NCBI GenBank assembly: GCA_035716045.1
Contig: DASTKI010000165.1
Coordinates: 80-64,079, forward strand
Origin: Ktedonobacterales bacterium
Lineage (GTDB): Bacteria; Chloroflexota; Ktedonobacteria; Ktedonobacterales; JADMIN01
Length of the DNA stretch: 64,000 nt
Direction: 5' to 3'
Below are positions 823-25,592 of this stretch, one piece after another; the first letter of the stretch is position 1, and every line of letters starts with the position of its first letter. The notes beneath the pieces are model-generated. The model was not told the origin of the DNA, did not search any database, and saw nothing but the letters and a program-made list of their open reading frames with translations. Made by a program: the position numbers and the translations under genes.

Positions 823-832
823 GCCGCCCGCC

Positions 833-2599
833 CTATCGCCGCCACGACTGCCCGCCAGGCCCACCACCTGGCCCCTCCGGCGCGGATGGCCACAGCGGCG
901 CAGCTCCTTGCTGCGCGCCCGGCGACCCCGGCTGCGGCGTGGGCGGCTGCGCGCCCGACCATTGTGCGGGTCGCCTGCCCTCCGCGGGCCACAGCGGCGC
1001 GCCCGGCGCCTGTACGGGCGGCGCGGGTTGAGCGGGCGGCGCCTGTCCTGGGCGCGCGCCCGGCGGCGGAGGCTGCCCCACTCCTTGTGGCGCTGGCTGT
1101 GGCGTTGGTGGCTGCCATGGAGCCGGGGGAGCGGGCGTGGATTGCGGCGGTTGCCACGGCCCGCTCGGCGGCTGCGCAAGCTGGCCACCCGGCGGCGTCA
1201 TCGGCTGGGATCCCACCGGGCGGGCGGGCGGATTGCCAATGGACGCCACCGGCCCCATCGCCGCCCTGGCGCCCTCACCCGCCGGCGCGCCTCCCGGCGT
1301 TGCCTGTGGCTTGCGCGACCCCATCCGCACCCAGATCGCCCAGCCGAACAGCGCCATCGCTCCAGTCTGCGTGATCCCCAGCAGAATCGCGTCCAGCCGC
1401 CCAACGCTCTGTAGCTGGATGTATTGCGAGAACGTCCCCGCCACCAGCAAGAACGCCAGCGACAGCACCGGCCAGCGCCACAGCCCCGACCGCCGGTCGC
1501 GCAGCGTGGAGAACTCCCAGACCACGATAAAGATGAACGGCTCCAGATAGTAGTAGGGCCACACCTGCTTGCTCAACATCGGCGTCGCCAGCGCGCCCAA
1601 CGCCACCAGCGCCCACACGTCCTCGTCACGCGCCGTCAGTCGTAGCCGCCGCGCCGCCAGCCACGTCACTACCGCTACCACCAGGATCACGGCATACATG
1701 TCCAGCCGCCGCGCCGCCGCGTCCACCAGATACCGCAGATGGTTGAGCGTCCCATCCGGCGAGCCCGTATACGCGAACAGCGCCCAGATCGAATCGCTGC
1801 CGATCTGCGCGCTGCCGCGCCACGAGACGAAGGTATACATCGCGTCCGCCCGGTCGAAGAGGAAGAACGGCGCCAGCCCCAGCGCCGCCACCAGCGCGCT
1901 CACCCCACCGAACGCCGCCAGCGTCCGCCATGCCCGCGTCAGCAGCAACAGCAGCCCCAGCGCGATCAGCGGGATCTGCGCCGTCGTCCGCGTCAGGAAC
2001 GCCAGCCCCGCCAGCAGACCCGCCAACTCCGGCCTATTCCGCTGCAGGAGCAAGACCGCCCCGAGCAGCAGGCACAGCATCAACGGCTGCTCGACGTGGT
2101 ACCAGATCGAATACGTCTGCCATGTCAACGGCGAGAGCGTCACCAGCGCATAGACCAGCAGCCGCTGCGCCTCCGGCGCGCCAGGATACAGCCGGTCCAT
2201 CACGCGCAGGCACAGATAGCCCAGCGCCGGGACCAGCACGATGAACGGCAGCGTTACGAACGTGATCAGCTCGCCATAATTCCCCGCGAACCCCAACGTC
2301 CGCGCCAGTCCCAGTAGCGGCGTCATCAGGAAGATGCTCAGCGGCGGATTGTAGTTTGGATACGTCAGGTCAGCCCGCACCGCGTACATCTGCCACACCT
2401 GCCCGCGCAGGATGTAGTCCGCCGACTTCAGGAAGAAGTTCGTCAGGTCGCTGTCAGCGATCGTCACTACGGCCCGCGTGCCGCGCACGATCGAGGTCGC
2501 GCCCAGCAGCAGGGAGATCGCCGTGACCAGCGCGAACATCCAGCGCGGCGCCCGCACGGGCACATTGGCGGAAGCGGCATCTGGGGCGGGTGATCGCAT
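833..2599 (-). CDS. Polytopic membrane protein, probable GT-C glycosyltransferase, with a long Pro/Gln-rich C-terminal tail
   Basis: ORF 833..2875 trimmed to ATG 2599 (MRSPAPDAAS...). The upstream extension reads through two family A repeats and is not credible. The body has at least 10 hydrophobic segments. The last ~190 aa are low-complexity PPxxPWQPP-type sequence. Confidence 0.6.
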   Translation of the reverse strand: MRSPAPDAASANVPVRAPRWMFALVTAISLLLGATSIVRGTRAVVTIADSDLTNFFLKSADYILRGQVWQMYAVRADLTYPNYNPPLSIFLMTPLLGLARTLGFAGNYGELITFVTLPFIVLVPALGYLCLRVMDRLYPGAPEAQRLLVYALVTLSPLTWQTYSIWYHVEQPLMLCLLLGAVLLLQRNRPELAGLLAGLAFLTRTTAQIPLIALGLLLLLTRAWRTLAAFGGVSALVAALGLAPFFLFDRADAMYTFVSWRGSAQIGSDSIWALFAYTGSPDGTLNHLRYLVDAAARRLDMYAVILVVAVVTWLAARRLRLTARDEDVWALVALGALATPMLSKQVWPYYYLEPFIFIVVWEFSTLRDRRSGLWRWPVLSLAFLLVAGTFSQYIQLQSVGRLDAILLGITQTGAMALFGWAIWVRMGSRKPQATPGGAPAGEGARAAMGPVASIGNPPARPVGSQPMTPPGGQLAQPPSGPWQPPQSTPAPPAPWQPPTPQPAPQGVGQPPPPGARPGQAPPAQPAPPVQAPGAPLWPAEGRRPAQWSGAQPPTPQPGSPGAQQGAAPLWPSAPEGPGGGPGGQSWRR

Positions 2600-2690
2600 A
2601 TTGTCTGTTATCCTCGCACTCCGCGCCGTCCACAACCCGCTCCGCCCTAACAAGCGAATGCGCGCCATCTCCTGCCCGCTTGCGTCGCGG

Positions 2691-2727
2691 CCCCTCTCCC
2701 CACAAGGAGAGAGGTAGGGGGTGAGGC
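2691..2727 (+). repeat. Family A palindromic repeat, copy 2
   Basis: cccctctccccacaaggagagaggtagggggtgaggc. Confidence 0.85.
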
Positions 2728-2862
2728 CCGGCGCCCCATGCGACCGCGCGCGCTCCACGCGCGCAGCCGACATCCGAAGCGAGTGTAGCACACCTCTGGC
2801 CAGCCGCGCGCGCCGCCTGCCCCATCGGGCCAAACTCGCCAAATCCCGCGCCCACAAAAAGG

Positions 2863-2899
2863 CCCCTCTCCCCAAAGGGAGAGGGGGTTGGGGTGAGGT
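2863..2899 (+). repeat. Family A palindromic repeat, copy 3
   Basis: cccctctccccaaagggagagggggttggggtgaggtc. Confidence 0.85.
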
Positions 2900-2905
2900 C
2901 TGCCC

Positions 2906-3493
2906 CTACCATACCCGCGGCAGCCGCTCCGCCAGCGCGCGCCGCCATTCCGCCGACGCGTCCGCCCGCACCAGCCAGCCGCCGACACCCAGCGCCAGCC
3001 CGGCGCCTGCGATCCACACGCTCCAGGCGATCTCCTCTGGCCCCGGCGTCGCCAGCAGTTGCAGCACATCAGGCCCGAGCCGCATCGCGGCGCCCGCCAG
3101 CCCGCTCTCGGGATATGTCCGCCACCATATGCCCACCGCCACGATCAGCGCCACCACTACCCCCACCAGGCGCAGGCCTGGCCCGCGCCAGAATACCGCC
3201 CGCGCCTGCCACGTCGCCATGCGCCGCATGCGCGCGCGCGCCAACTCAGCCGCCCGCTGCGCCTCATAAGCCGCCACGCGCCGCATGATCTGGTCCGCCA
3301 GTTCCGATGGGACCTGCGCCCGCGCCATCGGGTCCGCCTCGCGCAGCGCCGGCTCCGCCAGCCGCAGCCGCGCCAGGTCCCGCCGACACCCAGCGCACCC
3401 CGCCAGGTGGCGCTCCAACTGGAGCGCCCCGCGCGCATTCAGCCGCTCATCCAGATACAGGTTCATCAAGACGCCAGCGCGCGCATGCCTCAT
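2906..3493 (-). CDS. Anti-sigma factor (zf-HC2 type, single TM)
   Basis: N-terminal LDERLNARGALQLERHLAGCAGCRRDL matches the HxxxCxxC anti-sigma zinc motif. There is a central TM (LVGVVVALIVAVGIWW). The ATGA start/stop overlap with the upstream sigma gene (3490-3493) suggests translational coupling. Confidence 0.75.
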   Translation of the reverse strand: MRHARAGVLMNLYLDERLNARGALQLERHLAGCAGCRRDLARLRLAEPALREADPMARAQVPSELADQIMRRVAAYEAQRAAELARARMRRMATWQARAVFWRGPGLRLVGVVVALIVAVGIWWRTYPESGLAGAAMRLGPDVLQLLATPGPEEIAWSVWIAGAGLALGVGGWLVRADASAEWRRALAERLPRVW

Positions 3494-4335
3494 GACCGCT
3501 CCTCCTCACCCGGCGTCTCCGCCATCCCTGACGCCTCGTGCCCACGCTCGAACCATGCGCGCAAACCCGCCTCGATGGAGTCAATCGTCGCTTGCAAGCT
3601 GGCGCGCAGATCATCCGCGCGCGACAACCCCTCGTCGCGCGCGCGCTCCAGGTCGCTCAGCCGCTCTTTAAGGAGCGCCCGCGCCCGGAAGAGGTGCGTC
3701 TTCACCGTCCCAATCGGCACGCGCATGACCTCGGCGATCTCCTCGTAGCTCAGCTCCTGCAAGTGCCGCAGCACCAGCGCGTAGCAGTATTTCGCCGGCA
3801 GCAGCGCGATCTCCGCGCGCACCGCCTCGCGCACCTCCGCCTCCGCGGCGCGCGCCAGCCCGCTGGCTAGCGCCCCCTGCTCACGCGCGCGCTCGGCGAC
3901 CATCTCCGCCCGCGCCGCCTCATCGCGCCGCCGCCCCTCGCTCACCTTCAGACAATGCCGGTACGTAATGCGGTACAACCACGTCGCGAAGCGCGCCTCC
4001 TCACGGAACCGCCCTAGCCCCTGCCACGCCGCCAGAAACACATCCTGCGTCGCTTCGCTCGCCTCCTCAGGATCCCGCAGCATCCGCAAGGCAAGCGCGT
4101 ACACCTGCCGCTGGTGCAGCCGCACCAGCGCCCCAAACGCCTCCTGATCGCCCGCACGCGCCCGGCCGATCAACGCCGCCTCGCTAGCCACCAGCGCGTC
4201 TCCGCGCGCCGCGTCGCCAGGGCGCGGCAGCGAGACGCCATCGAGGCCGCCCGCCGTCGCCATATAGCTTGTCACCCACTCATCCATACCGGGATGGAGC
4301 GGCTGACTCGAAGAAATGTTTCGCGCGTCGTCCAA
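3490..4335 (-). CDS. ECF-type RNA polymerase sigma-70 family factor
   Basis: Region 2 (QEAFGALVRLHQRQVYALALRMLRDPEEASEATQDVFLAAW) and region 4 HTH (LSYEEIAEVMRVPIGTVKTHLFRAR). The true start may be an internal Met (4287 or 4263). Confidence 0.85.
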   Translation of the reverse strand: MDDARNISSSQPLHPGMDEWVTSYMATAGGLDGVSLPRPGDAARGDALVASEAALIGRARAGDQEAFGALVRLHQRQVYALALRMLRDPEEASEATQDVFLAAWQGLGRFREEARFATWLYRITYRHCLKVSEGRRRDEAARAEMVAERAREQGALASGLARAAEAEVREAVRAEIALLPAKYCYALVLRHLQELSYEEIAEVMRVPIGTVKTHLFRARALLKERLSDLERARDEGLSRADDLRASLQATIDSIEAGLRAWFERGHEASGMAETPGEEERS

Positions 4336-4440: not shown

Positions 4441-4640
4441 GCCCCCATCGTACACCATCTGGCATACCATGGCTACCAAGGGAGCGCGGCTACATAGTCT
4501 TTCCATGCTCACGGACAGCGGACCTTGCGCAAGCGCGGCGCCTTACGATACGGATGCGCCGCGCAACGCCACATCCCATTCACCCATGCGCCACGAGCGT
4601 GGCTCTCGCGGAGGGATACGCAAACACAGCGCGCCATCAT

Positions 4641-5291
4641 TCAGCCAGCGCCCTCGGCATCCGCAGTGGCATGTTCCTCAAGCGCTGATCGCAGGAGCGC
4701 GCTCGCCGACCAGCCCATCAGTTCGACCGCCTCCTCACGGGATAGCCCGGCGACATCCGTCAGCCAGACGAGCGCCTCGATCCCTACGGCGCTCCTGATC
4801 GCGAGCGCGAGCCTGTGGAGTTGCGGCTCCGGCAGCCGCCCGCGCAGCGGCGCGAGCGCCTCCTCGATCCAGACGACCGCTCGCCCTGTGCGGAACGGCA
4901 AGTCGGGGCGCGCGGCGCCAGCGCCGTCGTCGGCCTCGTCACGCTCGAGTGAGAGCCGGAGTTGGGCGCGCAGTTCTGGCTCATGCTCGACGATCAGGCG
5001 CCCAAGCGCTTCGACAGCCGCCGCCAGGCGCGCCTCCGGGTCCTGCGACGTGTGCTCCGGCAGGAGCGACGGCGCCGTGACCTGAGGGAACGTCGCAACC
5101 AGCAGCGCGCGCTGGTTCGGGAAATAGCGATACGCGGTCGTGCGCGACACCCCAGCCGCGTCGGCCGCCTGCTCAACCGTTGGCGTCACGCCCTGGGAGA
5201 GCAGCTCGCGCGCGGCCTCGACGAGTGCCCGGCGTGTGCGCGCTTTCTGCTGGACACGCCCAGTGCGCTCATATGGCATTGACATACTCAT
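4641..5291 (-). CDS. TetR family transcriptional regulator
   Basis: The 406-aa ORF 4641..5861 trimmed to MSMSMPYERTGRVQQKARTRRALVEAARELLSQGVTPTVEQAADAAGVSRTTAYRYF (TetR HTH). The upstream part of the ORF is antisense to the cupin gene. Divergent from 5379..5864. Confidence 0.85.
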   Translation of the reverse strand: MSMSMPYERTGRVQQKARTRRALVEAARELLSQGVTPTVEQAADAAGVSRTTAYRYFPNQRALLVATFPQVTAPSLLPEHTSQDPEARLAAAVEALGRLIVEHEPELRAQLRLSLERDEADDGAGAARPDLPFRTGRAVVWIEEALAPLRGRLPEPQLHRLALAIRSAVGIEALVWLTDVAGLSREEAVELMGWSASALLRSALEEHATADAEGAG

Positions 5292-5378
5292 GATGATAGT
5301 ATAACATACCATCATGGTACTTGAGTCCCATGTTCTCGTTGATGCCCCCTCTAGCAGTCGAAGAGAAAGGAACCAGCC

Positions 5379-5864
5379 ATGAGTGGCGCTCCGCTCATGC
5401 TCGCCGCGCGCGATGGCGAGAACCTCTTCTATGACGGCGGCCTCTTGACGTTCAAGGCCACTGGCGCCCAGACCGACGACGCGCTGTTGCTGTTCGAAGT
5501 CCATATGCCTCAGGGCAAGGCCACCCCGCTGCACGTCCACCCCGATGCGGACGAAACCTTCTATGTGCTCGATGGCGAGGTGCGGGTACACGTCGAGGGC
5601 GCGGATGACCGGACCGTCTCCAAAGACAGCGTCGTCATGATTCCTCGTGGCGCGGCCCACGCCTTCATGGTCGTCTCGCAGGTCGCGCACCTGCTGGTAA
5701 TCATGACGCCAGCCAGCACGATCAGCGAAACCTTCTTCCGCCTGGCCGGTGAGCCCGCGCCCGACCCCACGCTGCCGCCGCCACCATCCAACATGGAGCG
5801 CTTCGCCGCCGCCGCCGCGCAATCGGGAATGAAGGTCCTCGGCCCGCCGCCATTCGGCCACTAG
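5379..5864 (+). CDS. Cupin domain protein
   Basis: PLHVHPDADETFYVLDGEVRV...IPRGAAHAF matches the two cupin motifs. An AGGAA-type RBS (gaaaggaacc) precedes the ATG. Confidence 0.8.
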   Translation: MSGAPLMLAARDGENLFYDGGLLTFKATGAQTDDALLLFEVHMPQGKATPLHVHPDADETFYVLDGEVRVHVEGADDRTVSKDSVVMIPRGAAHAFMVVSQVAHLLVIMTPASTISETFFRLAGEPAPDPTLPPPPSNMERFAAAAAQSGMKVLGPPPFGH

Positions 5865-6233
5865 GTGAGCCCGGCCCTCCGGTGGCGGCCGGCGGCGCCG
5901 GCGGCGGTCCCTGCCGCTCCAGCCACAGCGGATTCCCGCTCATACCGCGGCGACACGAAGTCGAAGATGGCTGGCTATGAGCTGTGGCCCCACCCAGCAT
6001 GGCCAGTCATGGCACAGGATGCGGTTCGCTTGGCATGTACCCTGATTTCACATGAGCCCTGCCCCACGTGTCGCTGCGATACCGAAGCAAATCTCCGGAT
6101 TAGGTGGACGCCGCGGTGTGATCGCATGAGACGCTCGAGCAAACGCTCTCATCTTTGATTCAAGCGCTTGCCGAGGCCGAAAGCGCGCTCTACCGCGGCG
6201 TGGCAGAGCCAGTCGCGGTGCTCCCCCAGGCGC

Positions 6234-6272
6234 CCATGTCAGCCCACCATGTCAGCCCACCATGTCAGCCCA
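6234..6272 (+). repeat. Perfect 13-nt x3 tandem repeat (ccatgtcagccca) in the leader of the secreted-protein gene
   Basis: Counted directly: three identical units at 6234-6246, 6247-6259 and 6260-6272, just upstream of the RBS aggaagag and GTG 6296. Confidence 0.95.
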
Positions 6273-6295
6273 ATACAGAAAGGAAGAGACTTTCC

Positions 6296-6853
6296 GTGAA
6301 GCGTTTGTTCCTTGGGAAGCGTTTGTTTCTTGGCAGTCTGCTCGCTGTGACGCTAGTCGCCGCCCTGGCGATCAGCCGCGTCCAGGCGGCACATGCGGAT
6401 ACCACGAATCCCGACTTCGGCAGCGTCTTGTCGGCGATTGACCGCACCCAGCAGACCAATGCAACCCTCGCGAGCCTCTCCGGTGTCGTTGCAGGCGATA
6501 TCAGCCTTGTCAATGTGGCGCCACTCCTTCCGCCCAATCCGATCCTTCCGCCCAATCCGATCCTTCCGCCTAGCCCGATCCTCGCGTTCCATGAGGCAGT
6601 GGCCCGCAACGCAGTCGATATCCTGACGCTGCGGACAACGTTCACTAACCTGAATGTCCTCGAGCAGTCGAACTGCACAGACTGCACGCTGGGAACCCTT
6701 GACGGGTATCTCAGTGACCACGGTATCGCCTTGAATGACGTGGTCACGGCCGACCTGTCCGGCGCGCGGCTCACTGTGTACTACTTCATTCCTACGGAAC
6801 CCTGCGTTCAAAACCCGCTGAGCGCCTGCGACGAGCCGGGACTCAGCGGCTAG
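6296..6853 (+). CDS. Secreted hypothetical protein with internal tandem repeats
   Basis: GTG 6296 is in frame with ORF 6155..6853 and preceded by gaaaggaagag. Signal-peptide-like KRLFLGKRLFLGSLLAVTLVAALAISRVQAAHA. An 18-nt duplication gives KRLFLG x2 and an 18-nt x3 repeat gives PPNPIL/PPNPIL/PPSPIL. Locally lower GC. Confidence 0.55.
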   Translation: MKRLFLGKRLFLGSLLAVTLVAALAISRVQAAHADTTNPDFGSVLSAIDRTQQTNATLASLSGVVAGDISLVNVAPLLPPNPILPPNPILPPSPILAFHEAVARNAVDILTLRTTFTNLNVLEQSNCTDCTLGTLDGYLSDHGIALNDVVTADLSGARLTVYYFIPTEPCVQNPLSACDEPGLSG

Positions 6854-7083
6854 CGCTGGCTAGCGGCGCGATTTGGGAGCCGTGAGCGGAGACTTCCAGC
6901 CCGGATGGTGCGCGAGTAGCGGGACGCACGAGCATATCATTGGATCGAGGCTGGACCGAGGCGCCCGGGAGGAGGCGTAGGCGCGCTCATCGCCCGCTAC
7001 CCACCCGAAGAGGCCTGAGCCACTGCCTCAAAGCGACCGCTCCGCGCAAACAGGCAAGCGCGACCCGAAGAATATCTGAACAA

Positions 7084-7121
7084 TCGAACGGCCCTGAGAG
7101 CATGCTCTCAGGGCCGTTCGA
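7084..7121. repeat. 38-nt perfect palindrome (possible terminator or operator)
   Basis: tcgaacggccctgagagca|tgctctcagggccgttcga; the two arms are exact reverse complements. Intergenic, with no T-tract. Confidence 0.9.
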
Positions 7122-7459
7122 TGTCTGAGAGCGACCAGGCGGGATTTGGTGGACGCCGAGCGCCACCCATCCGATCCAGATCGCCGCTGCGCGCTGTACT
7201 ACTGCTGATATACTGAAGGGTCGGTTTTCACAAATCATCTGGCGCGCCATCGTGTCGCTGTCAGGAAGAAGGAGCCGCCGCCATGCGCCCGCCCGCGACC
7301 ATCATACTGCTCAACGGCGTGCGGTACGCGACTTCATCGCCCATCACGCCCCCACGGCGTTTGGTCTCCTCCGCCAATCGCCGCCCCCACTGCCGTAGGG
7401 ACAGGACCAGGCGCCACATGCTCTTGAGATGATCGCGCGGATGGAAAGGAAGAGAGGCG

Positions 7460-15171: not shown

Positions 15172-15214
15172 GCCCCGCTTCCCGCAAGAAGAGGGGTAGG
15201 GGGCGAGGCCCCTC
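15172..15214 (+). repeat. Family A repeat, copy 7 (diverged)
   Basis: ccccgcttcccgcaagaagaggggtagggggcgaggcccctc. Confidence 0.7.
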
Positions 15215-17877: not shown

Positions 17878-19626
17878 ATGACCCAGACCACTACAGCCAC
17901 CGACACAGCTGGACAGAATCGCGGCTCGCTCTCCTGGAGCTACGTCAGCGGCGTCAGCGATACACCTCTGCTCGGCGTCACCATCGGCGACCTCTTCGAC
18001 GCCACCGTCGCCCGCTTCCCCGACCGCGAGGCCCTCATCTCACGCCACCAGGATCTCCGCTATACCTGGCGCGAGCTACAGGACGAAGTCAACCGCTGCG
18101 CTCGCGGCCTCCTGGCCATCGGCGTCAAGAAGGGCGACCGCGTCGGCATCTGGGCCCCTAACCGCGCCGAGTGGGCCATCACCCAGTTCGCCACCGCCAA
18201 GATCGGCGCGATCCTCGTCAACATCAACCCCGCCTATCGCCTCCACGAGCTCGAATACGCTCTCAACCAGTCTGGCTGCTCCACCCTCGTCTTCTCCCCC
18301 ATGTTCCGCACGACCAACTATACCGAGATGGTCATGACTCTCTGCCCGGAGCTCAACTCCTGCGCCCCCGGCCAGCTCGACAGCCACCGCATCCCCCACC
18401 TGCGCCACGTCATTCGCATGGGGACCGAGCGCGCCCCCGGCATGTGGGTCTGGGGCGAGATCCTGGAGCGCTCCAAAGAGATCAGCTCCGCCATCCTCGC
18501 CGAGCGCCAGGCCGAGCAGGAGTTCGACGACCCGATCAACATTCAGTACACCAGCGGCACCACTGGCAACCCCAAAGGCGCGACGCTGAGCCACCACAAC
18601 ATCCTCAACAACGGCTACTTCGTCGCCCGCCTGCAAGAATTCACCGAGAACGACCGCCTCTGCATCCCCGTCCCCCTCTATCACTGCTTCGGCATGGTCA
18701 TGGGCAACCTCGGCTGCGCCACCCACGGCGCCACCATGATCTATCCCGCCGAGGCCTTCGAGCCCGCCGCCACGCTCGAAGCCGTTCAGGCCGAGCGCTG
18801 CACCTCGCTCTACGGCGTGCCCACCATGTTCATCGCCGAGCTGGCCCATCCCGACTTCGAGCAATACGACCTCTCCAGCCTGCGCACCGGCGTCATGGCC
18901 GGCTCGCCCTGCCCTGTTCAGGTCATGCGCCAGGTCATTGACCGCATGAACATGCGCGACGTCGAGATCTGCTACGGCATGACCGAGACTAGCCCCGTCT
19001 CCTTCCAGACCCATACCGACGACCCGCTGGAGAAGCGCGTTGGCACCGTCGGCCAGATTCACCCCCACGTCGAGGTCAAGCTCGTTGACCCCGCCACCGG
19101 CAAGGTCGTCCCGCGCGGCATGCCCGGCGAGCTGCTCACCCGCGGGTACTCCGTCATGATCGGCTACTGGGAGAACGCCGACGCCACCGCCAAGGCCATT
19201 GACGGCGCCCGCTGGATGCACACCGGCGACCTCGCCACCATGGACGCTGACGGCTACGTCAACATCGTCGGCCGCCTCAAGGACATGGTGATTCGCGGCG
19301 GCGAGAACATCTACCCCCGCGAAGTCGAGGAGTTCCTCTACACCAACCCCAAGATCAGCGACGTGCAGGTCATCGGCGTCCCCGACGCCCGCTACGGCGA
19401 GGAGTTGATGGCCTGGGTCAAGCTGAAGGACGGCGAAGTCGCCACCACCGAGGAGCTGCAAGACTTCTGCCGCGGCCAGATCGCCACCTACAAGATCCCG
19501 CGCTACTGGAAGTTCGTTGACGGCTTCCCGATGACCGTCACCGGCAAGATCCAGAAGTTCCTCATGCGCCAGCAAGCCATCGAGGAGCTCGGCCTCCAGC
19601 ACGCCGCCACCATCCAGACCGCCTGA
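17878..19626 (+). CDS. AMP-dependent acyl-CoA synthetase/ligase
   Basis: 582 aa. AMP-binding signature [20 protein letters not shown], plus [21 protein letters not shown] and a C-terminal GKIQKF. RBS gggaggtg. Confidence 0.9.
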
Positions 19627-19660: not shown

Positions 19661-19748
19661 CGCTCTCCCCTCTCCTCCCAGGAGAGCGGCCACAGGTGAG
19701 GCCCCTCATCTCCCCTCCCCCCATGGGAGAGGGGCCGGAGGTGAGGTC
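19661..19748 (+). repeat. Family A repeats, copies 8 and 9 in tandem (possible terminator of the acyl-CoA synthetase gene)
   Basis: ccgctctcccctctcctcccaggagagcggccacaggtgaggcccc followed by tcccctccccccatgggagaggggccggaggtgaggtc. Confidence 0.85.
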
Positions 19749-19774
19749 GCGCCCCGCTTGCGCCCGCCCGCCGC

Positions 19775-21259
19775 ATGCCCGCCGTCTTCATCTCCTACCG
19801 CCGCGCCGATAGCGCCAGCACCGCCGGTCGCATAGACGATCAACTCGTCGCCCGCTTCGGTCGTGCGCATGTCTTCAAGGACGTGGACTCCATCCCGCCC
19901 GGCGTGGACTTCGAGCGCTACATCGAAGACGCCATCCGCCGCTCCCACGCCGTCCTCCTCATCATCGGCCCCCGCTGGCTCAGCGCCTCCGCCGGCCTCT
20001 TCCGCCGCCGCCTCGACGACCCCGCCGACTTCGTGCGCGTCGAGATCGAGATCGCCCTGCGCCTCGGCGTCCCGATCATCCCGCTGCTGGTGGAAAACGC
20101 CGCCATGCCGCCCGCCGCGCGTCTGCCCGCCTCCCTGCGCCCACTCGCCACGCTCAACGCGCTGCCCGTCCGTCCCGACCCCGACTTCCACCGCGATATG
20201 GAGCGCGTCCTGCCCGCCATCGAGCGCCTGATGGCCGGCCCGCCTCCCACCCCGCCCATGCCCTCTGAACCCACGCCGCCAGCGCCCACCCTCACACAAG
20301 CGCCCGCCATCCCTACCACGCCCGAGCAGCCACCAACCCGCCAGCCGCCAGATGAACCAACACTCCCCCCTACCCTGCCCGCCGCGCCTCCCCTCTCCCC
20401 GCAAGGAGAGGGGGCAGGGGGTGAGGCCACCCATAAGCGCCCCGCCATCGCCCTTACCCAGCGGATGGGCGTCAAGCCCTCCCGGAGCCCCGCGCTGGGC
20501 AGGCTGGTGGCGACCATCTCCGCTCTCGTCCTGATCGCTGTCACTGTCCCTCTCCTTCTCAGTGCGCAGCCATCCCCTCTCACTGCGATCTTCACTGATA
20601 CCAGCGCCACCTCCACCGCGAGCAGCGGTACTGTCACTACGCAGGCCTATGCCACCAGCTTTGCAGCCACGCAGACCGCCCAGGCGATCGACCGGGCCAA
20701 GGAATACAAGCCTACCGGTGTTGGACCATGCGATACCGCTGAAGGTGAGAAATATCAACGCCCCGATAACCCGTACTACTGGTCCTGGTCCCACGATAAG
20801 GGCCATGCGGTAACCTGCGCACCCGGGAATGTGGCCAAGCTAACCGGCAGTGGAACACTTACGTTCTACGGCATTCCTGCCGGCTTTCCATCCGAGTTCA
20901 AGGCCACGCTTACACTGTCCTTCCACGCCACCGCAGGTGATGGCTCCTCCTGCTTCTACCTCTATGTCGGCACGGACGTTTCCCCCGACATCCCTCCCTT
21001 TGTCAGATTCTGCGATAACGGAACCTGGTGGCCCAGAGGCGCTACCTCGCAGCGTTGCTGCGTCTCAGCATCCGGTACGTTGGACTTCCTCGTGATCGTC
21101 ACCACCAACACCATCGCGATCAGCGTCAATGACCATGTATTGCTCTCCGGGACAGACTATTCCCGGACAGTGAGTTACATTTCCATCCAGGGGCAGGACA
21201 TCGCGACCGGCGGCTGGCTCGGCGCCTCCAACTTCGACCTCAAGCCCACCACGCCATGA
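19775..21259 (+). CDS. TIR domain protein with a single TM and an extracytoplasmic C-terminal domain
   Basis: N-terminus VFISYRRADSASTAGRIDDQL...VFKDVDSIPPGVDFERYIEDAIRRSHAVLLIIGPRWL...FVRVEIEIAL matches the bacterial TIR_2 pattern. A Pro-rich linker containing family A copy 10 in-frame follows, then TM LVATISALVLIAVTVPLLL and a ~230-aa lower-GC beta-rich domain with Cys pairs. Confidence 0.8.
   Translation: MPAVFISYRRADSASTAGRIDDQLVARFGRAHVFKDVDSIPPGVDFERYIEDAIRRSHAVLLIIGPRWLSASAGLFRRRLDDPADFVRVEIEIALRLGVPIIPLLVENAAMPPAARLPASLRPLATLNALPVRPDPDFHRDMERVLPAIERLMAGPPPTPPMPSEPTPPAPTLTQAPAIPTTPEQPPTRQPPDEPTLPPTLPAAPPLSPQGEGAGGEATHKRPAIALTQRMGVKPSRSPALGRLVATISALVLIAVTVPLLLSAQPSPLTAIFTDTSATSTASSGTVTTQAYATSFAATQTAQAIDRAKEYKPTGVGPCDTAEGEKYQRPDNPYYWSWSHDKGHAVTCAPGNVAKLTGSGTLTFYGIPAGFPSEFKATLTLSFHATAGDGSSCFYLYVGTDVSPDIPPFVRFCDNGTWWPRGATSQRCCVSASGTLDFLVIVTTNTIAISVNDHVLLSGTDYSRTVSYISIQGQDIATGGWLGASNFDLKPTTP
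20389..20427 (+). repeat. Family A repeat, copy 10, in-frame inside the TIR gene linker
   Basis: cccctctccccgcaaggagagggggcagggggtgaggcc, translated as PPLSPQGEGAGGEA. Confidence 0.8.
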
Positions 21260-21297
21260 CCTCACCCACGCCCCACCATGCCGGCTTCACCAGCGCC

Positions 21298-21323
21298 GTG
21301 CGCCAGCCATTCATGGCTGCGCC
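21298..21323 (+). repeat. Family C repeat (gtgcgccagccattcatggcNgcgcc)
   Basis: Lies between the convergent TIR and MCP genes. Confidence 0.8.
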
Positions 21324-21339
21324 CACCGCCCGCTCACCG

Positions 21340-23517
21340 CTACTCGCTGGACCCCGCGGACGGCCCATCGCCGTATGGCCGCGTTGGCGCGCCTAACCGC
21401 CTGCGCCTCATCGCGGGCGTCTCCGGCATCGTCTCCTGCAAGAGCGCCGCCTCATCCGAAGCGGACAGCGCTGGCGGCTTCGCAATGGATGGCAATAGCG
21501 TCGTTTCCACCATATCCGCTGATTCCACCGGCGTCCGCGCCAAAGGCATCACCACCGTCGGCTGCTCGGAGGCGTCACCCACCGCCACATCGGGCGCGCC
21601 CACCGGCCATTCATGGCCGCGCCCCTCACTCCCAGCGTGCGCCAGCCATTCATGACCGCGGCCCTCACTCCCAGCGTGCGCCAGCCATTCATGGTCGCGC
21701 CGTTCCCCCGCCGTGTCCCCGCGCCCGGCGACCACTGGACGGGCTGTCGGCTTCAGATGCCCCGTCAGCCCACCCGGCTCCGGAAGCCAGCGCGTCATGC
21801 GCGCGGCGGCTGGTCGCTCTGGCTCTAGCGCAGGCGCCTCGATCTCCTGATCATGCTCCCGCAGGCGGAACTGCGCGATCTGCTCCTGCAGCGCCTGCGC
21901 CAGGTCCACCAAATAGTCCATCGAGGCCCGCGCCTGCTCCATGCTATCCCGCGTCTGCGTCGAGACCGCCGCCAGCTCCTGGATCGCCTCCACCACCTGC
22001 GAGGCCACCCCCGCCTGCTCTATCGCGATATCGCTGATCTGCTGGATCGCCCCCGCCATCCGCTGGGTATACCCATCCACCGCCTCCAGCGCCGAGCCCG
22101 CCCGCGCCACCAGCTCCGACTGCAAGACCACCTCTTCCGCGCTGTGCTCGATCTGCCGCGCCACCTGCCCCGTCTCGTTCTGCACTGCCTGGATGCGGGC
22201 GTGGATCTGCCGCGTCGCCTCCGCGCTGTTATTCGCCAGGCTGCGCACCTCATGCGCCACCACCGCGAAGCCGCGCCCGTGCTCCCCGGCGCGCGCCGCC
22301 TCGATCGCCGCGTTCAGCGCCAGCAGATTCGTCTTAGCCGCGAAATCCTCCACCACGCGCACGATCATGCCGATATCCTGCACCGTCTCGCCCAGCCGCT
22401 TGACCTTCTTCGTCGTCTGCAGCGTCAGCTCGCGCACCCGCAGCATCCCCTCCGACGCCACCTCCGCGTCGTGGCTCCCATCCCGCGATACCTCGCTCGC
22501 CACCTGCGCCAGCCCGCTCGACTCCCCCGCCGTCGTCGCGATCTGCCGGACGTTCTCCGCCATCCCCTCTACGACATGTGACAGCTCGAGAATTCGGTCC
22601 GCCTGGTCCTGCGCGCCCTCCGCCAGATAGGTCGCCGCCGCCCGTACCTCGCTCGCGTGCTGGTTCACCATCTCGCTCGCCGAGCGCACCTCCAGCAGCA
22701 GCCCATTCAGCGTCAGCAGCAGGTCATTCAGCGAGCTTGCCAGCGGCGCCAGCCCCACGCTCAGCGGCGGCGCGGGCTGGCTCAGGTCATGGTCGCGCGC
22801 CAGCTCCAGGCTCCGCCGCAGCAGCGCCAGCCCCTCATCCAGCATCCTGCGCTCTTGCTCGCGCTCGGCGAACAGGCGGCTCGTGTCAATCGCCAGCGCC
22901 GCCTGGTCGGCGAACAGCTCGATGATCTCGATTGTCTCCAGCGTGGGAACCTGCCGGTCCTCCGGCTGATCGAGCGACAGCAGCCCCAGCAGCCGCCCCG
23001 TCCGCGGGCTAACCAGCGGCGTCAGCAGCACATCCTCCGGGTCCCACTCATCGGGCGCCCCGGTCGCTGGCTCCGGAGGCGGCTCCACCACGCCGGTCGC
23101 CGGGATCACCTGGCTGTCCTGATGCGGGATGAAATACGAGCGGCTGCGGCGAAAGCGCGCCTGCATGCCCGCCCGCAACTCCTCTAGGCGCGGTGGCCGT
23201 TCCAGCAGCTCGCGCTGGTTCGCCGGGCTCAGGCCCGTCGTCGCCACCACATCCATGAACTCGCTATCCTGCCGCGCCAGGTTCAGCGCCGCCACGCGAA
23301 AGCCCGTCGAGCCGCTCACCGCCTCCACCACTTGCGCGCAGATCCGCTCGATCCCCATCTCCGCCCGCAGCGCCGCCCCCAGCCGCACCATCTCCTTCAC
23401 CTGGCGCATGCGCCGCTCCGCGTCCCGCGCCGCTCCCAGCGTATGCGCGGCGCCTGCGTCCCCAGCGTCCCGCCCGTCCCCAGCGTCTCGCTTCGACCAG
23501 CGCGGCCCAGTTGTCAT
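21340..23517 (-). CDS. Soluble GAF-domain methyl-accepting chemotaxis protein
   Basis: MCP signalling hairpin [34 protein letters not shown]-terminal GAF-like region (...[41 protein letters not shown]). Start trimmed to ATG 23517 because the longer ORF reads through a family C repeat. The C-terminal tail contains in-frame family C repeats. Confidence 0.8.
21595..21702 (+). repeat. Family C tandem array (39-nt period, ~2.7 units) inside the MCP C-terminal tail
   Basis: Units gtgcgccagccattcatgaccgcggccctcactcccagc. On the minus strand they read in-frame as [13 protein letters not shown] repeated. Confidence 0.85.
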
Positions 23518-23597
23518 GCGCCTCGCCTCCCTCTCGGCCCGTACCCGTGCGGCCTCTCGTCCACTATGCCCGCCATGCCTGGCTTCGCTCAGCCGCC

Positions 23598-23622
23598 GTG
23601 CGCCAGCCATTCATGGCCGCGC
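23598..23622 (+). repeat. Family C repeat
   Basis: gtgcgccagccattcatggccgcgc, upstream of the MCP start. Confidence 0.8.
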
Positions 23623-23726
23623 GGCGCCTGCGCACCCTCCAGGCCCTAAAGGGCCGGGGCACGGTACGCAACCTTAAAACGTACTGGGGGCAGAGGCCTG
23701 GGGCATTTATGCCCTAAGCCCGCGCC

Positions 23727-23752
23727 GTGCGCCGGCCATTCATGGCCGCGCC
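23727..23752 (+). repeat. Family C repeat
   Basis: gtgcgccggccattcatggccgcgcc, just downstream of the DinB-like gene stop. Confidence 0.8.
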
Positions 23753-23763
23753 GTCCCCTCGCC

Positions 23764-24303
23764 CTACGATCGCGCCAGCGCCTCCGTCAGCCAGTCTACA
23801 TGCTGACCATCGTGCCGCGCCATCTGCTTGAACAAGCCGCGCACCGTCCCAGGGGGAAACGGCGAATGCGGCGACTCCTGGTCCAATTGCTCATCGCTGA
23901 GCGACGCCAGCAGCGCCAGCGTCGCCTGCCGTGTCTCGCCCAGCCGCACCAGCAGCGCCGCCACCGGCTCGTCGCGATACTTCGCCAGCGCCCGCTCGTT
24001 CGACGCATTGGCCACGCGCGCCACCGCCTCGTGCGTCAGCGAGCCAGCTTCTGTATAAAATCCCGCGGGATCATCGGCCCCCGCCAGCGTCCGCTTCACC
24101 GCGCCCTGTAGATACCGCTCCACACCCAGCGCATGCGCCAGATGGTCTTTGACCCGCCACATCGCGCCGCCCGGTATCTCGCTCGGCGTCACGGGCCGCT
24201 CCATCTCCTCCGGCGTCCGCGCCGCAATCCACCGCTCCAGCCGCCCCCGCTGCTCTGTCAACGCCGCGAGCAACGCCTCGCGCGTCGGCGCCGTATCAGT
24301 CAT
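23764..24303 (-). CDS. DinB-family (four-helix bundle metal-binding) protein
   Basis: Trimmed to MTDTAPTREALLAALTEQRGRLERWI. His-containing helices KDHLAHALGVERYL and MARHDGQHVDWL are typical of DinB_2/MDMPI_N-like proteins. Confidence 0.7.
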   Translation of the reverse strand: MTDTAPTREALLAALTEQRGRLERWIAARTPEEMERPVTPSEIPGGAMWRVKDHLAHALGVERYLQGAVKRTLAGADDPAGFYTEAGSLTHEAVARVANASNERALAKYRDEPVAALLVRLGETRQATLALLASLSDEQLDQESPHSPFPPGTVRGLFKQMARHDGQHVDWLTEALARS

Positions 24304-24563
24304 CGTAGACTCCCCTTCACGCTGCATGGCTGCTCCCGCGCCAACGCGCCCGCCAGGCCCCATGGCGACCTGCCGCCCGCGCGGCGACATCGAATGCGCG
24401 ACCGCTGGCTCGACTGTAGCCGCTCTCGATCGGGAGAGAGCGACAGGCCAAGTCACGCCACCCTCCAGTATGGCACACCTACCAGTGGAAAAAGTCAGCG
24501 CCACGAAGACGGCATGTCCTCGTGGCGCTGAATGAGCGGCCAGACTGGCCCGCGCGCTTCCCC

Positions 24564-25592
24564 CTACTGGCCGGGGAAGTGGCACGCCGCCTGGTGATTC
24601 ACGCTCGTCCCTGGCTTCACTTCCAGCGGCGGGACCTTCTCGCGGCAGATCGCCTGCGCCTTCCAGCAGCGAGGGTGGAACGGGCAGCCCGACGGCGGGT
24701 TCACCGGGCTTGGCACGTCACCCGTCAGGATGATCCGCTTCCGCGTCTTCTCCAGGTCGGGGTCAGGGAATGGGCTGGCCGAGAGCAGCGCGATGGTGTA
24801 CGGATGCTGCGGATTCAAGTACACCTCATCCGCCGTGCCAAGCTCCACGATATGCCCCAGATACATCACCGCGACCCGCGTGCTGATATGCTTGATCGCC
24901 GACAGGTTATGGGCGATGAACATGTACGTTAGGTTGAACTCCGCTCGCAGTTCCGCCAGCAGATTCAACACCTGCGCCTGGATGGACACATCCAGCGCCG
25001 AGATCGGCTCGTCAGCCACGATGAACTTCGGATTCAGCGCCAGCGCCCGCGCGATGCCGATGCGCTGTCGCTGCCCGCCGCTGAACTCATGCGCGTAGCG
25101 GTTCAGAATGTTCGGGCTCATCCCCACCACCCGCAACAGGTAGCGGATGCGCTCGTCCATCTGATCGCGCGACCCATAATTGAAGTTGGTCAGCGGCTCG
25201 GCGATCACCGTGCCCACCGTGAAGCGCGGGTCGAGCGAGCTATATGGGTCCTGGAAGACCATCTGCATATCGGCCCGGCGCTGGCGCAGCCTCTCCGGCC
25301 GCATCGTCACCAGGTCCTCGCCCTCGAAGAACACATGGCCCGCCGTCGGCTTGATCAACTGCAGCGCCGCCCGTCCCAACGTCGACTTGCCACAGCCGCT
25401 CTCACCCACCAGGCCCAGCACCTCGCCGCGCTTGACCTGTAGATCAACCCCATCCACCGCCTTGACCGAGGCCACCGTCCGGCCGAACAGCCCGCCGCGA
25501 ATGGGGAAATGGACCTTGAGGTCCCGAATGTCTATCAGCGTTTCGCCTAGCGCGGGGGAAGCCGCATTAGGCTGAGGCAACGTCGTCTCCAA
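24564..25592 (-). CDS. Oligopeptide/dipeptide ABC transporter ATP-binding protein (OppF/DppF-like)
   Basis: Walker [10 protein letters not shown], signature FSGGQRQRIGIARAL, Walker B FIVADEPISALD, and a C-terminal oligopeptide-type extension with CPFHPRC. Confidence 0.9.
   Translation of the reverse strand: METTLPQPNAASPALGETLIDIRDLKVHFPIRGGLFGRTVASVKAVDGVDLQVKRGEVLGLVGESGCGKSTLGRAALQLIKPTAGHVFFEGEDLVTMRPERLRQRRADMQMVFQDPYSSLDPRFTVGTVIAEPLTNFNYGSRDQMDERIRYLLRVVGMSPNILNRYAHEFSGGQRQRIGIARALALNPKFIVADEPISALDVSIQAQVLNLLAELRAEFNLTYMFIAHNLSAIKHISTRVAVMYLGHIVELGTADEVYLNPQHPYTIALLSASPFPDPDLEKTRKRIILTGDVPSPVNPPSGCPFHPRCWKAQAICREKVPPLEVKPGTSVNHQAACHFPGQ

Follow-up and report, generated by a model that had tools for sequence, protein, structure and literature searches.

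To our knowledge, the bacterial TIR systems known so far sense their triggers inside the cell, whether these are cyclic nucleotides, nucleic acids or phage proteins. In SARM1, TIR-SAVED, TIR-STING and AbTir, the assembly of TIR domains with one another forms a composite active site. Some of the known systems close to the protein analyzed here carry a TIR domain fused directly to a sensor module, as in TIR-SAVED of CBASS, TIR-STING, TIR-APAZ of SPARTA and the single-gene TIR systems of Escherichia coli (PMC11350192). These single-protein effectors are activated by oligomerisation and deplete NAD+ with no separate effector, and their sensors are cytoplasmic (for cyclic nucleotides, guide/target nucleic acid or phage proteins), whereas the sensor of the present protein is predicted to lie outside. 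The single-gene systems, one of which contains a transmembrane (TM) segment, protect E. coli from phage, and the same recent survey of E. coli remarked that TIR systems of bacteria seem to lack TLR-like membrane features (PMC11350192).

Lectin-fold sensors joined to TIR domains have been described in multicellular bacteria as NPCBM-TIR and FGS-TIR (Kaur et al. 2021, PMC8195603). The present protein shares with them a lectin-fold sensor, a TIR domain, a multicellular host and a diversifying sensor; on the other hand, their sensors were described as intracellular, with discoidin or C-type-lectin folds, and the one reported here is ConA-like and predicted to be extracytoplasmic. According to that study, a concanavalin-fold (SPRY-like) sensor had not yet been observed in any conflict system of prokaryotes (PMC8195603). 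The TIR domain of SARM1 is thought to derive from a bacterial TIR clade (PMC13142454). In the literature searched, the coverage of which was incomplete, no bacterial TIR-TM-extracytoplasmic lectin protein was described.

The product of the gene analyzed here is predicted to have this arrangement. As judged from its sequence and structure models, it resembles an outside-in receptor that would serve death or immunity in a bacterium, with a SARM1-like, predicted NAD-cleaving TIR domain inside and a lectin-fold domain outside. The host, a filamentous and multicellular member of the Ktedonobacterales, is described as a soil member of the Chloroflexota.

The gene and its genomic context

The gene was analyzed in a window of 64,000 nucleotides of the Ktedonobacterales bacterium assembly GCA_035716045.1 (contig DASTKI010000165.1, positions 80 to 64,079 of the forward strand). 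The features of the gene and of the adjacent spacers, numbered by position in the window, are as follows.

19681..19746, + strand: REP-like hairpin repeat, two copies within the 148-bp spacer upstream of the gene
19775..21259, + strand: TIR-TM-ectodomain gene, a complete ORF with an ATG start, 494 aa plus stop
19775..20239, + strand: predicted cytoplasmic SARM1-type TIR domain, aa 1-155 (Pfam TIR_2, PDB sequence match, AF2/Foldseek)
20042..20044, + strand: E90 codon; the residue, within DFVRVEIEIAL, aligns with SARM1 E642 and is predicted to be the catalytic glutamate
20240..20503, + strand: Pro-rich linker, predicted cytoplasmic, aa 156-243 (31% Pro)
20390..20427, + strand: in-frame copy of the REP-like hairpin repeat within the linker, of the same family as the intergenic copies, encoding PLSPQGEGAGGE
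20504..20560, + strand: single TM helix, aa 244-262, predicted N-in/C-out (hydropathy, K/R bias)
20561..20689, + strand: Ser/Thr/Ala-rich stalk, predicted extracytoplasmic, aa 263-305 (65% S+T+A)
20690..21256, + strand: predicted extracytoplasmic ConA-like (distantly galectin-like) beta-sandwich, aa 306-494 (AF2, Foldseek)
20729..21013, + strand: four conserved cysteines, C319, C348, C393 and C413, putatively in disulfides (codons at 20729, 20816, 20951 and 21011)
21280..21333, + strand: second family of palindromic repeats, one copy within the 80 bp that separate the TIR gene from the convergent GAF-MCP gene

The 494-aa product was 100% identical to the NCBI protein P0001, deposited as "TIR domain-containing protein [Ktedonobacterales bacterium]", and approximately 15 full-length homologues of P0001 were found, of which P0002 to P0006 share with it the start MPAVFISYRR. 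Two antisense ORFs, 19706..20806 and 19918..20637 (both on the - strand), were dismissed as high-GC artefacts; it is the plus-strand product that is identical to the deposited protein and has these homologues. The five segments follow in the order TIR domain, Pro-rich linker, TM helix, Ser/Thr/Ala stalk and ConA-like ectodomain, and each element described in the initial annotation, including the Pro-rich linker, was found at its coordinates within 19775..21259 (+). The linker was poorly conserved among homologues (mean pairwise identity of 30%, with numerous indels), and its REP-like segment was present in P0001 and P0002 only, the other homologues showing a gap. The REP-like hairpin repeat gave 5 matches in the window versus 0.32 expected by chance, and the second palindromic repeat was found in 6 copies between 21200 and 23800. 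Scans for sigma-70 promoters and intrinsic terminators found nothing.

The neighbours of the TIR gene encode an acyl-CoA synthetase, a GAF-MCP protein (convergent), a DinB_2 protein and Opp transporter ATPases, and the locus is part of a conserved syntenic block of housekeeping genes. The initial annotation had pointed to the lack of an adjacent ThsA-like partner; in agreement with this, neither a ThsA-like nor another defence gene was found within about 7 kb on either side. The PADLOC matches of the neighbours were generic ABC-ATPase cross-matches on the Opp ATPases, which have oligo_HPY domains, and a defence island was therefore rejected. The placement in a housekeeping syntenic block with no defence island speaks against the receptor reading favoured below. 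At the homologous loci no conserved partner or neighbourhood was found outside the synteny block. A functional link to NAD biosynthesis was not adopted, because adjacency to nadB-nadC-nadA was seen at a single homologous locus (L001).

The TIR domain and its predicted orientation in the membrane

The TIR assignment made in the initial annotation was upheld and refined to a SARM1-type domain. In a Pfam scan of the whole protein the sole domain found was TIR_2 (PF13676), which covered aa 4-119 with E=6.2e-14 and 53 bits against a gathering cutoff of 28. The best PDB sequence match of the domain was the TIR domain of SARM1 (E=2e-4), at an identity of only about 24%. The AF2 model of the domain had a pLDDT of 92.7 and a beta-alpha pattern, and in Foldseek it matched TIR structures only, the top 33 being all SARM1 or TIR-1 TIR domains (TM 0.80/0.90, RMSD 1.7 Å). 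The TIR domains of MyD88 and IL-18R were much weaker structural matches.

The conserved glutamate context that had been noted in DFVRVEIEIAL was borne out, since E90 pairs with SARM1 E642 (DWVHKEIVTAL) in the sequence alignment and was invariant in 15 family members and 34 TIR-clade sequences. Likewise, FISYRR, D36 and G43 pair with FISYRR, D594 and G601 of SARM1, which belong to the NAD pocket and BB loop, and together with E90 they were invariant or at least 90% conserved in the 34 TIR-clade sequences. From this alignment and the model, the domain looks like a catalytically competent SARM1-type TIR that is predicted to cleave NAD+, although a conserved glutamate in a TIR domain is no guarantee of NADase activity (PMC7075850).

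The likeness to SARM1 and TIR-1 comprises the FISYRR box and the pairs D36/D594, G43/G601 and E90/E642, with TIR self-association as the expected mode of activation, and is confined to the TIR domain. The ARM and SAM domains, the octameric ring and the NMN/NAD allosteric site of SARM1 are absent here, and the TIR domain is N-terminal, membrane-tethered and accompanied by an ectodomain. A SARM1 orthologue was therefore rejected, the ARM-SAM-SAM-TIR architecture being replaced by TIR-TM-ectodomain; the protein is a bacterial member of the clade that presumably gave rise to the TIR domain of SARM1.

Known bacterial TIR systems were also considered. No SAVED, STING or APAZ domain was found in the protein with Pfam or PADLOC. 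Assignment to CBASS TIR-SAVED was rejected because the PADLOC SAVED_TIR match spans only aa 4-70 of the TIR domain and the C-terminal part consists of a TM segment and a ConA-like domain. Thoeris was rejected as well: the NCBIfam ThcB4 model scored 31 bits against a cutoff of 220, the PADLOC ThsB match was restricted to aa 4-70, and no adjacent effector (SIR2, SLOG, Macro, TM or other) was found.

The segment aa 244-262 (LVATISALVLIAVTVPLLL) was the sole hydrophobic segment of the protein (Kyte-Doolittle 2.64), as expected from the single TM helix of the initial annotation, and was preceded by 4 K/R in 20 aa and followed by none in 20 aa. Hydropathy and the positive-inside rule thus place the TIR domain inside and the C-terminal domain outside, so that the protein is predicted to be a type II (N-in, C-out) single-pass membrane protein with a cytoplasmic TIR domain. 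A TM segment with N-side K/R bias stood ahead of the ectodomain in nearly all family members, and the same orientation was predicted in all checked members with a detectable TM. The four conserved cysteines of the ectodomain also fit an oxidising location outside the cell.

The initial annotation had spoken of a Toll-like receptor topology. Toll-like and IL-1 receptors combine a single membrane pass and a TIR domain inside with a binding domain outside; a comparable layout is predicted for the present protein, and oligomerisation on ligand is a presumed common logic. However, the predicted orientation is the reversed type II, the ectodomain is ConA-like and not LRR or Ig, adaptor proteins are absent, and the TIR domain is of the enzymatic SARM1 type, the scaffold-type TIRs of the TLR pathway ranking far lower in Foldseek. 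Because of the reversed orientation, the non-LRR ectodomain and a TIR domain that is SARM1-like rather than TLR-like, the Toll-like label is an analogy and not homology of the receptor.

The predicted extracytoplasmic domain and its family

The C-terminal part (aa 263-494) proved to be cysteine-containing, Ser/Thr-rich and of lower GC, as had been annotated: it contains 6 cysteines, Thr and Ser make up 14% and 10% of its residues, and it has a GC content of 0.58-0.60 versus about 0.70 in the TIR domain and flanks, and a GC3 of 0.72 versus 0.91. A single horizontal transfer as the source of this composition was rejected because the lower GC3 recurs in most of the homologous genes, in other genomes. 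The stalk (aa 263-305) had a mean identity of 28%.

The suggestion of a beta-sandwich or lectin-like domain was supported by structure prediction. The AF2 model of the ectodomain, with a pLDDT of 92.3, was all-beta with 13 strands and gave 249 Foldseek matches in the PDB at E<=1e-3. The top matches listed were ConA-like lectin/glucanase domains, and the matches included trans-sialidase lectin domains, BoNT HCN, the L-type lectin Emp47p and GH16, PL7 and GH43 C-domains, as well as, among viral structures, ConA-like phage tail proteins, including tail-fibre and Mtd-like proteins. In the alignment of ectodomains the beta strands were conserved and the loops were rich in indels. Across 31 ectodomains, cysteines C319, C348, C393 and C413 either did not vary or were conserved at 90% or more, and P0002 had lost C393 and C413 together.

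No family of Pfam or NCBIfam matched the ectodomain. An exhaustive HMMER search found only 24 cluster representatives with a matching domain among 1.84 billion proteins (1.84e9). This type of search was needed to find relatives, since a word-indexed search gave only 3 proteins with the ectodomain profile and, with the ectodomain sequence, failed to return even its own protein. When GTDB representative genomes were scanned with the protein as a single query, TIR-only matches were found in many phyla and no ectodomain was seen.

At the profile level, similarity to galectins was weak. In the PDB, the family profile matched two marginal stretches of the galectin-fold chain 2wsu with E=2.4e-6, while E was about 0.02 for galectins 9 and 3, hhalign with galectin-3 gave a probability of 7% (E=0.005), and the family motifs C..G.W and VN pair with C173...W181 and AVND of galectin-3. 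However, the galectin signature H-x-N-x-R ... N ... W-G-x-E-x-R was not conserved in the ectodomains, which keep the Trp (W418) and the VN strand alone, and the preceding strand had no conserved H, N or R across the family. There was no Pfam galectin match, and membership of the galectin family (Gal-bind_lectin, PF00337) was not accepted, given the hhalign probability and the missing sugar-binding signature. The jelly-roll beta-sandwich is common to galectin CRDs, the ConA-like superfamily and this domain, which differs from galectins in its four conserved cysteines and membrane anchor. On the profile and model evidence the ectodomain is best treated as an undescribed family within the ConA-like lectin/glucanase superfamily. 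Its most likely ligand is a glycan or a surface protein, glycan binding being a fold-based guess because the residues with which galectins canonically bind sugar have not been kept.

A survey of cytoplasmic partners, which had been proposed with the initial annotation, found only TIR_2 domains or none. The ectodomain was joined to the SARM1-like TIR clade, to other TIR_2 types (P0121, P0124, P0128 and P0129), making at least 2-3 TIR_2 types in all, or to no cytoplasmic domain, and no fusion to any other cytoplasmic effector was found among the family members surveyed. One related genome carried three TIR-less TM-ectodomain genes in the same syntenic slot, one of them with tandem domains, indicating that the ectodomain has a function independent of the TIR domain. 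The genomes of the homologues encode many TIR proteins with other partners, and FGE-sulfatase (FGS) fusions were found in the same TIR clade. Among the closest relatives of the TIR domain, 35 of 106 were single-TM proteins with 180-490 aa outside, and in a further class the TIR was C-terminal, in a topology typical of classical two-TM sensors.

Mean identity was 72% in the TIR domain versus 30% in the ectodomain, which by this comparison is evolving much faster than the TIR domain. Between the DNA pairs available, the ectodomains were no more than 47% identical in amino acids. With tandem paralogues also present, the aligned sequences place the protein in a small, tandemly expanding, fast-diverging paralogous family.

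Possible modes of action

We favour, at somewhat less than even confidence, the reading that the protein is a clustering-activated outside-in TIR NADase receptor with a ConA-like ectodomain, and infer its activation and outcome as follows. The flexible Pro-rich linker of about 90 aa would tether the SARM1-type TIR domain to the membrane, and the stalk would bear the probably disulfide-stabilised beta-sandwich outside. A multivalent external ligand, perhaps a phage particle, a fragment of cell wall or an adjacent filament with its surface, would cluster the ectodomains and so bring the tethered TIR domains together. TIR-TIR assembly would then form a composite active site dependent on E90 that cleaves NAD+, and as the outcome that cell of the filament would stop growing or die. 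The lack of a partner gene and of a conserved neighbourhood outside the synteny block fits such a self-contained sensor-effector. Since a single flexible TM helix and a disordered linker of 90 aa pass conformational signals poorly, only mechanisms of clustering or of release are plausible.

Release would make the protein a sensor of envelope integrity. The membrane anchor would hold the TIR domain monomeric and silent until the wall or ectodomain was damaged or the linker was cut by a protease, which would release or concentrate the TIR domain for self-assembly and NAD+ depletion, and the ectodomain would bind the cell's own wall glycans and report their loss rather than a foreign ligand. The long, disordered and poorly conserved linker is a plausible protease substrate, a stalked lectin-fold ectodomain could bind self cell-wall polymers, and the presence of TIR-less paralogues at this locus points to a basal function in association with the wall; moreover, removal of the N-terminal TM tether of Dictyostelium TirC unleashes a bacterial-derived TIR NADase (PMC13142454). 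However, no protease or site-2-protease-type gene was found near the TIR gene, and ectodomain divergence to 30% identity is more typical of variable non-self recognition than of a conserved self polymer. We regard release as unlikely.

The TIR-less TM-ectodomain genes in the same syntenic slot, one of them with tandem domains, also mean that the TIR domain may be an add-on with another role. The protein would then be a constitutive surface lectin or adhesin, with wall organisation, filament adhesion or binding of nutrient glycans as its primary role, and the TIR domain would serve for oligomerisation or as a scaffold, or metabolise NAD at a low level, with no cue-dependent killing. The housekeeping context and the homologue next to nadB-nadC-nadA agree with this, and many TIR domains serve as scaffolds (PMC7075850). 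On the other hand, neither the catalytic glutamate nor the residues of the NAD pocket vary within the clade, the constraint on the TIR domain is much stronger than that on the ectodomain, and the ectodomain has been fused repeatedly and independently to different TIR types and to no other oligomerisation domain, which argues that TIR chemistry matters and leaves a constitutive lectin rather improbable.

It is just as improbable that the TIR domain acts in a Thoeris-like way, making a cADPR isomer or related nucleotide that activates an effector encoded elsewhere with no bulk depletion of NAD+, because, against the ThsB and ThcB4 models that match weakly and within the TIR domain only, the diverse effectors of many newly described Thoeris types (10.64898/2025.12.03.692087) and the many TIR proteins with other partners in these genomes, there stand a TIR structure that is SARM1-like and not ThsB-like, the NCBIfam Thoeris score far below its cutoff and the lack of an adjacent effector here or at any homologous locus examined.

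The clustering-activated receptor can be extended to a bolder proposal, that the transmembrane TIR proteins of the SARM1-like clade, this family included, are outside-in receptors whose diversifying paralogous lectin-fold sensors detect phage or non-kin filaments and kill the contacted cell by E90-dependent NAD+ depletion. We consider this doubtful. If true, bacteria would possess an equivalent of TLR-type surface sensing that is connected to an executioner of the SARM1 type, and multicellular Chloroflexota would use it for allorecognition or for antiviral defence before entry.

In any case, the extracytoplasmic domain family is new and previously undescribed. If a surface lectin carries the TIR domain as a passive addition, the finding shrinks to this new domain family and an unusual fusion. 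According to the predictions, a close bacterial relative of the SARM1 NADase sits at the cytoplasmic side of a single-pass protein with a lectin fold outside, and about one third of the nearest TIR relatives likewise span the membrane, with two topologies among them. If the coupling between the two sides is real, surface sensing tied to a TIR output arose in bacteria, and the protein would offer a simple one-protein model for clustering-activated TIR NADases. The family would then amount to a repertoire of diversifying receptors in a lineage of multicellular bacteria, with a bearing on the origin of programmed cell death and allorecognition.

Layout of the gene and its surroundings

The TIR gene was found where the initial annotation had placed it, with the following features in and around it (window positions; aa refer to its protein, P0001).

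17878-19626, +, acyl-CoA synthetase gene, before the TIR gene
19775-21259, +, TIR gene, ATG start, 494 aa
aa 156-243, linker, 31% proline
aa 244-262, LVATISALVLIAVTVPLLL, transmembrane (TM) segment, the single strongly hydrophobic segment
aa 263-305, stalk, 65% Ser/Thr/Ala
21340-23610, -, GAF-MCP-signal gene, convergent with the TIR gene
beyond the GAF-MCP gene, DinB_2, two Opp ATPases and an Opp permease
2706-2726, 2878-2898 and 15188-15208, REP-like repeat
19681-19701 and 19726-19746, REP-like repeat, spacer upstream of the TIR gene
20390-20427, REP-like repeat inside the TIR gene, 1-nt indel, in frame, linker-coding region
21280-21333, second repeat, spacer past the TIR gene stop codon
21580-21711, second repeat in three tandem copies spaced 39 nt apart, within the 3' part of the GAF-MCP ORF
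23580-23633 and 23709-23762, second repeat, at or near the 5' end of the GAF-MCP ORF

The annotated order of a Pro-rich linker, one TM and a Cys-containing, Ser/Thr-rich C-terminal part of lower GC was thus recovered: the C-terminal region has six cysteines, GC falls from about 0.70-0.75 to 0.58-0.60 across 20550-21150, and GC3 within the gene drops from 0.91 to 0.72. P0001 is 100% identical to a deposited 'MAG TPA: toll/interleukin-1 receptor domain-containing protein [Ktedonobacterales bacterium]', and its source thus falls within class Ktedonobacteria of the Chloroflexota. Long antisense ORFs over the gene were rejected as high-GC artefacts. No defence genes were found among its neighbours in the window, in agreement with the annotated absence of an adjacent ThsA-like partner.

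The REP-like hairpin repeat ('CCCCTCTCC-loop-GGAGAGGGG-NN-GGNGGTGAGG') had 5 matches in the window against 0.32 expected by chance. The in-gene copy is translated as PLSPQGEGAGGE, a segment carried only by P0001 and its homologue P0002, indicating that the coding region has taken up a small palindromic repeat. The second repeat family has the palindromic core 'GCCAGCCATTCATGGC'; its three tandem copies encode a repeated peptide in the GAF-MCP ORF, and one of the two 5'-end copies overlaps the first codons of that ORF. The DinB_2 ORF (23764-24585, -, 273 aa) shares 22 nt with an Opp ATPase ORF, and no domain was matched in its first ~135 residues; syntenic homologues are 178-181 aa long, and translation probably begins at an internal Met close to 'MTDTAPTREALL'.

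TIR domain and ectodomain

The Pfam TIR_2 profile matched aa 4-119 of P0001 (E=6.2e-14, 53 bits, gathering score 28), bearing out the TIR_2-type assignment. The nearest solved relative by sequence was the SARM1 TIR (E=2e-4), with 'DFVRVE90IEIAL' opposite 'DWVHKE642IVTAL', the same FISYRR, and D36/D594 and G43/G601 paired. In an alignment of 34 clade sequences (mutual identity up to about 80%), the predicted catalytic E90 as well as Y8, R9, R10 and D36 were invariant and G43 was present in at least 90%. When an AlphaFold2 model built on this alignment (pLDDT 92.7) was compared with the PDB, the top 33 matches were all SARM1 or C. elegans TIR-1 TIR domains (TM 0.80/0.90, RMSD 1.7 Å, E=1e-9), followed with much weaker scores by SPARTA TIR-APAZ, plant TIRs, AbTir and MyD88. 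Alignment, conservation and structure ranking together identify this domain as a bacterial member of the SARM1-like clade with its catalytic constellation intact, a placement that fits published phylogenies in which the SARM1 TIR is nested inside a bacterial lineage (PMC13142454). Since a conserved Glu is no proof of TIR activity (PMC7075850), NADase activity is put forward as a prediction. Defence-system models gave sub-threshold matches on the TIR portion only: PADLOC ThsB and SAVED-TIR were confined to aa 4-70, and NCBIfam Thoeris ThcB4 reached 31 bits, where the cutoff is 220.

The ectodomain (aa 306-494) had no match in Pfam or NCBIfam, and when 1.84 billion cluster representatives were searched exhaustively with phmmer, 24 proteins were returned, which marks the family as rare and undescribed. 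In an alignment of 31 ectodomains the strands are conserved and the loops between them indel-rich, C319, C348, C393 and C413 are near-invariant, and the motifs GPCD, YYW, FYG.P, FP..F.A, C.DG.W, VNG and S.F.L.P are kept. P0002 is the sole sequence in it without C393 and also lacks C413, a joint loss that suggests a putative C393-C413 disulfide. A vicinal pair, C428-C429 (window 21056-21061), follows W418 in a loop corresponding to the galectin W-G-x-E-x-R ligand-binding loop; it is common only to the closest homologues, P0003-P0005, and absent from the remaining family.

The AlphaFold2 model of the ectodomain was all-beta (pLDDT 92.3, pTM 0.89) and gave 249 Foldseek matches in the PDB at E<=1e-3. 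The top matches were ConA-like superfamily domains (TM about 0.5-0.6, 8-16% identity): lectin-like domains of trans-sialidase and bacterial sialidases, BoNT HCN, the L-type lectin Emp47p, GH16 glucanase, PL7 lyases, and accessory domains of GH43 and galactocerebrosidase. A viral library yielded ConA-like phage tail-fibre and Mtd-type proteins. Sequence-profile matches in the PDB were galectin-fold chains only, namely adenovirus fibre galectin domains (2wsu, E=2.4e-6, two marginal stretches) and galectins 9, 3, 10 and 4 (E=0.02-0.8). The 'C..G.W' motif lies opposite galectin-3 C173...W181 and 'VN' opposite 'AVND'; hhalign of the family against galectin-3 gave a probability of just 7%, and the sugar-binding residues H-x-N-x-R / W-G-x-E-x-R are not conserved in the 31 sequences. 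The structural matches bear out the initial description of the domain as beta-sandwich or lectin-like; with the weak galectin signal they place it as a new family in the ConA-like lectin/glucanase superfamily, possibly with a distant relationship to galectins.

Topology, family and wider clade

Wherever a hydrophobic segment could be detected in a family member, it was a single TM 50-70 residues before the GPC motif, and with one or two exceptions K/R are enriched N-terminal of it (in P0001, four in the 20 residues before and none in the 20 after). This bias, the single TM and the conserved cysteines support the annotated arrangement, in which the beta-sandwich is predicted to be extracytoplasmic and the pre-TM part cytoplasmic. 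The pre-TM parts are as follows.

SARM1-like TIR: P0001-P0015, P0133, P0136
other TIR_2 types with distinct signature sequences: P0121, P0124, P0128, P0129
20-45-residue tail only: P0122, P0123, P0125-P0127, P0131, P0132, P0134

Among the family members examined, the ectodomain was thus joined to TIR_2 types or a short tail, and no other effector domain was found. That a single rare ectodomain has been joined repeatedly to several kinds of TIR is, among the indirect evidence, what speaks most strongly for joint function of the two halves. Mean pairwise identity within the family was 72% for the TIR versus 30% for the ectodomain. Of six homologous loci examined, all but L087 showed lower GC3 in the ectodomain, with ranges in the window and loci L001, L002, L082 and L086 of 0.67-0.75 for the ectodomain, 0.77-0.91 for its own TIR and 0.75-0.91 for neighbour genes. 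A single transfer was ruled out as the source, since the drop recurs in five loci; fast evolution, paralogue recombination or relaxed codon usage might account for it.

In four assemblies the homologue P0005 is flanked by the gene order seen in the window, apart from an inserted epimerase. In JGI sample 3300047160 the syntenic slot (10.6-kb contig, 628-3760) holds three consecutive TIR-less family genes, P0130 (two ectodomains in tandem), P0134 and P0138. On a 154-kb contig of that sample (4466-7338 of the locus), P0121 directly follows a 462-aa TIR_2 gene of the size of P0124, suggesting that the two are probably tandem TIR-TM-ectodomain paralogues with different TIR heads, the ectodomain of the 462-aa gene being putative. 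Other homologues lie in unrelated contexts. Synteny, tandem arrays and TIR-less copies thus indicate a chromosomal family that expands in tandem and varies in TIR presence. P0007 lies ~480 bp upstream of nadB-nadC-nadA on the same strand (L001, 1479-7527); these genes serve de novo NAD synthesis, a suggestive neighbourhood for a NAD-consuming-type TIR, seen at this locus only.

Related TIRs (45-67% identity) occur in hundreds of proteins with different C-terminal parts, including FGE-sulfatase, WD40, TPR, FHA, Peripla_BP_6, YeaQ/YmgE and DUF308. One TM plus 180-490 further residues was found in 35 of the 106 closest non-family relatives, whose ectodomains have no Pfam match. The 31-sequence profile marked P0009 as a clear family member and picked up remote ectodomain versions in P0017, P0043, P0032, P0029 and P0030. 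A two-TM class (P0039, P0047, P0051, P0056, P0061, P0088, P0118; also P0046, P0065) has an N-terminal signal-anchor, an unannotated outside domain of ~195 or 395 aa and, after another TM, a cytoplasmic TIR at the C-terminus. This resembles the topology classically found in histidine kinases and chemoreceptors (MCPs), with TIR as output instead. Among GTDB representative genomes, members of the TIR clade were found in Chloroflexota, Planctomycetota, Nitrospirota, Cyanobacteria, Proteobacteria and others; the ectodomain was not recovered there.

Possible mode of action and relation to known systems

P0001 combines two confident domains on either side of a predicted single TM with an intact SARM1-type catalytic site; a partner gene is absent and the TIR-ectodomain fusion is recurrent. 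The initial observation is thereby confirmed, and its reading as an outside-sensing TIR receptor is supported in part. The ectodomain may bind a glycan or surface ligand, and a multivalent ligand would cluster the receptors; the flexibly tethered TIRs could then come together as an active, NAD+-cleaving oligomer, leading to cell arrest or death. A single TM and a 90-residue disordered linker could hardly carry a conformational change, so that clustering or proteolytic release would be the plausible route. Release of the TIR by proteolysis is a plausible alternative by analogy with Dictyostelium TirC, for which it has been suggested (PMC13142454). TIR-less paralogues and the housekeeping context leave more mundane readings open; the paralogues occupy the same slot, lending weight to a surface lectin family with TIR as accessory scaffold. 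Further rivals to receptor clustering are a Thoeris-like signal generator with its effector encoded far away and an envelope-integrity sensor.

In predicted working mode P0001 is closest to single-chain bacterial TIR NADase effectors (TIR-SAVED, TIR-STING, SPARTA and single-gene E. coli TIR systems; PMC11350192). It is also akin to the lectin-fold-sensor and TIR fusions described by Kaur et al in multicellular bacteria (PMC8195603). Unlike both, its sensor is predicted to lie outside the membrane, and its fold is of the concanavalin type, said to be unseen in prokaryotic conflict systems (PMC8195603). Of the initially annotated Toll-like receptor topology, the inside TIR and outside domain stand as predicted; the likeness to TLRs is by analogy only, as P0001 has the reverse orientation, an ectodomain that is not LRR and a TIR of the SARM1 type. 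No published description of a TIR-TM-extracytoplasmic lectin architecture was found in the literature, of which coverage was incomplete. The gene was already deposited with a generic TIR annotation; what appears new is the predicted TIR-TM-ectodomain architecture, with a candidate domain family as by-product. Robust and unusual, this architecture, whose function is a predicted one, extends more widely to transmembrane proteins with SARM1-like TIRs, a class that is both sizeable and unstudied.
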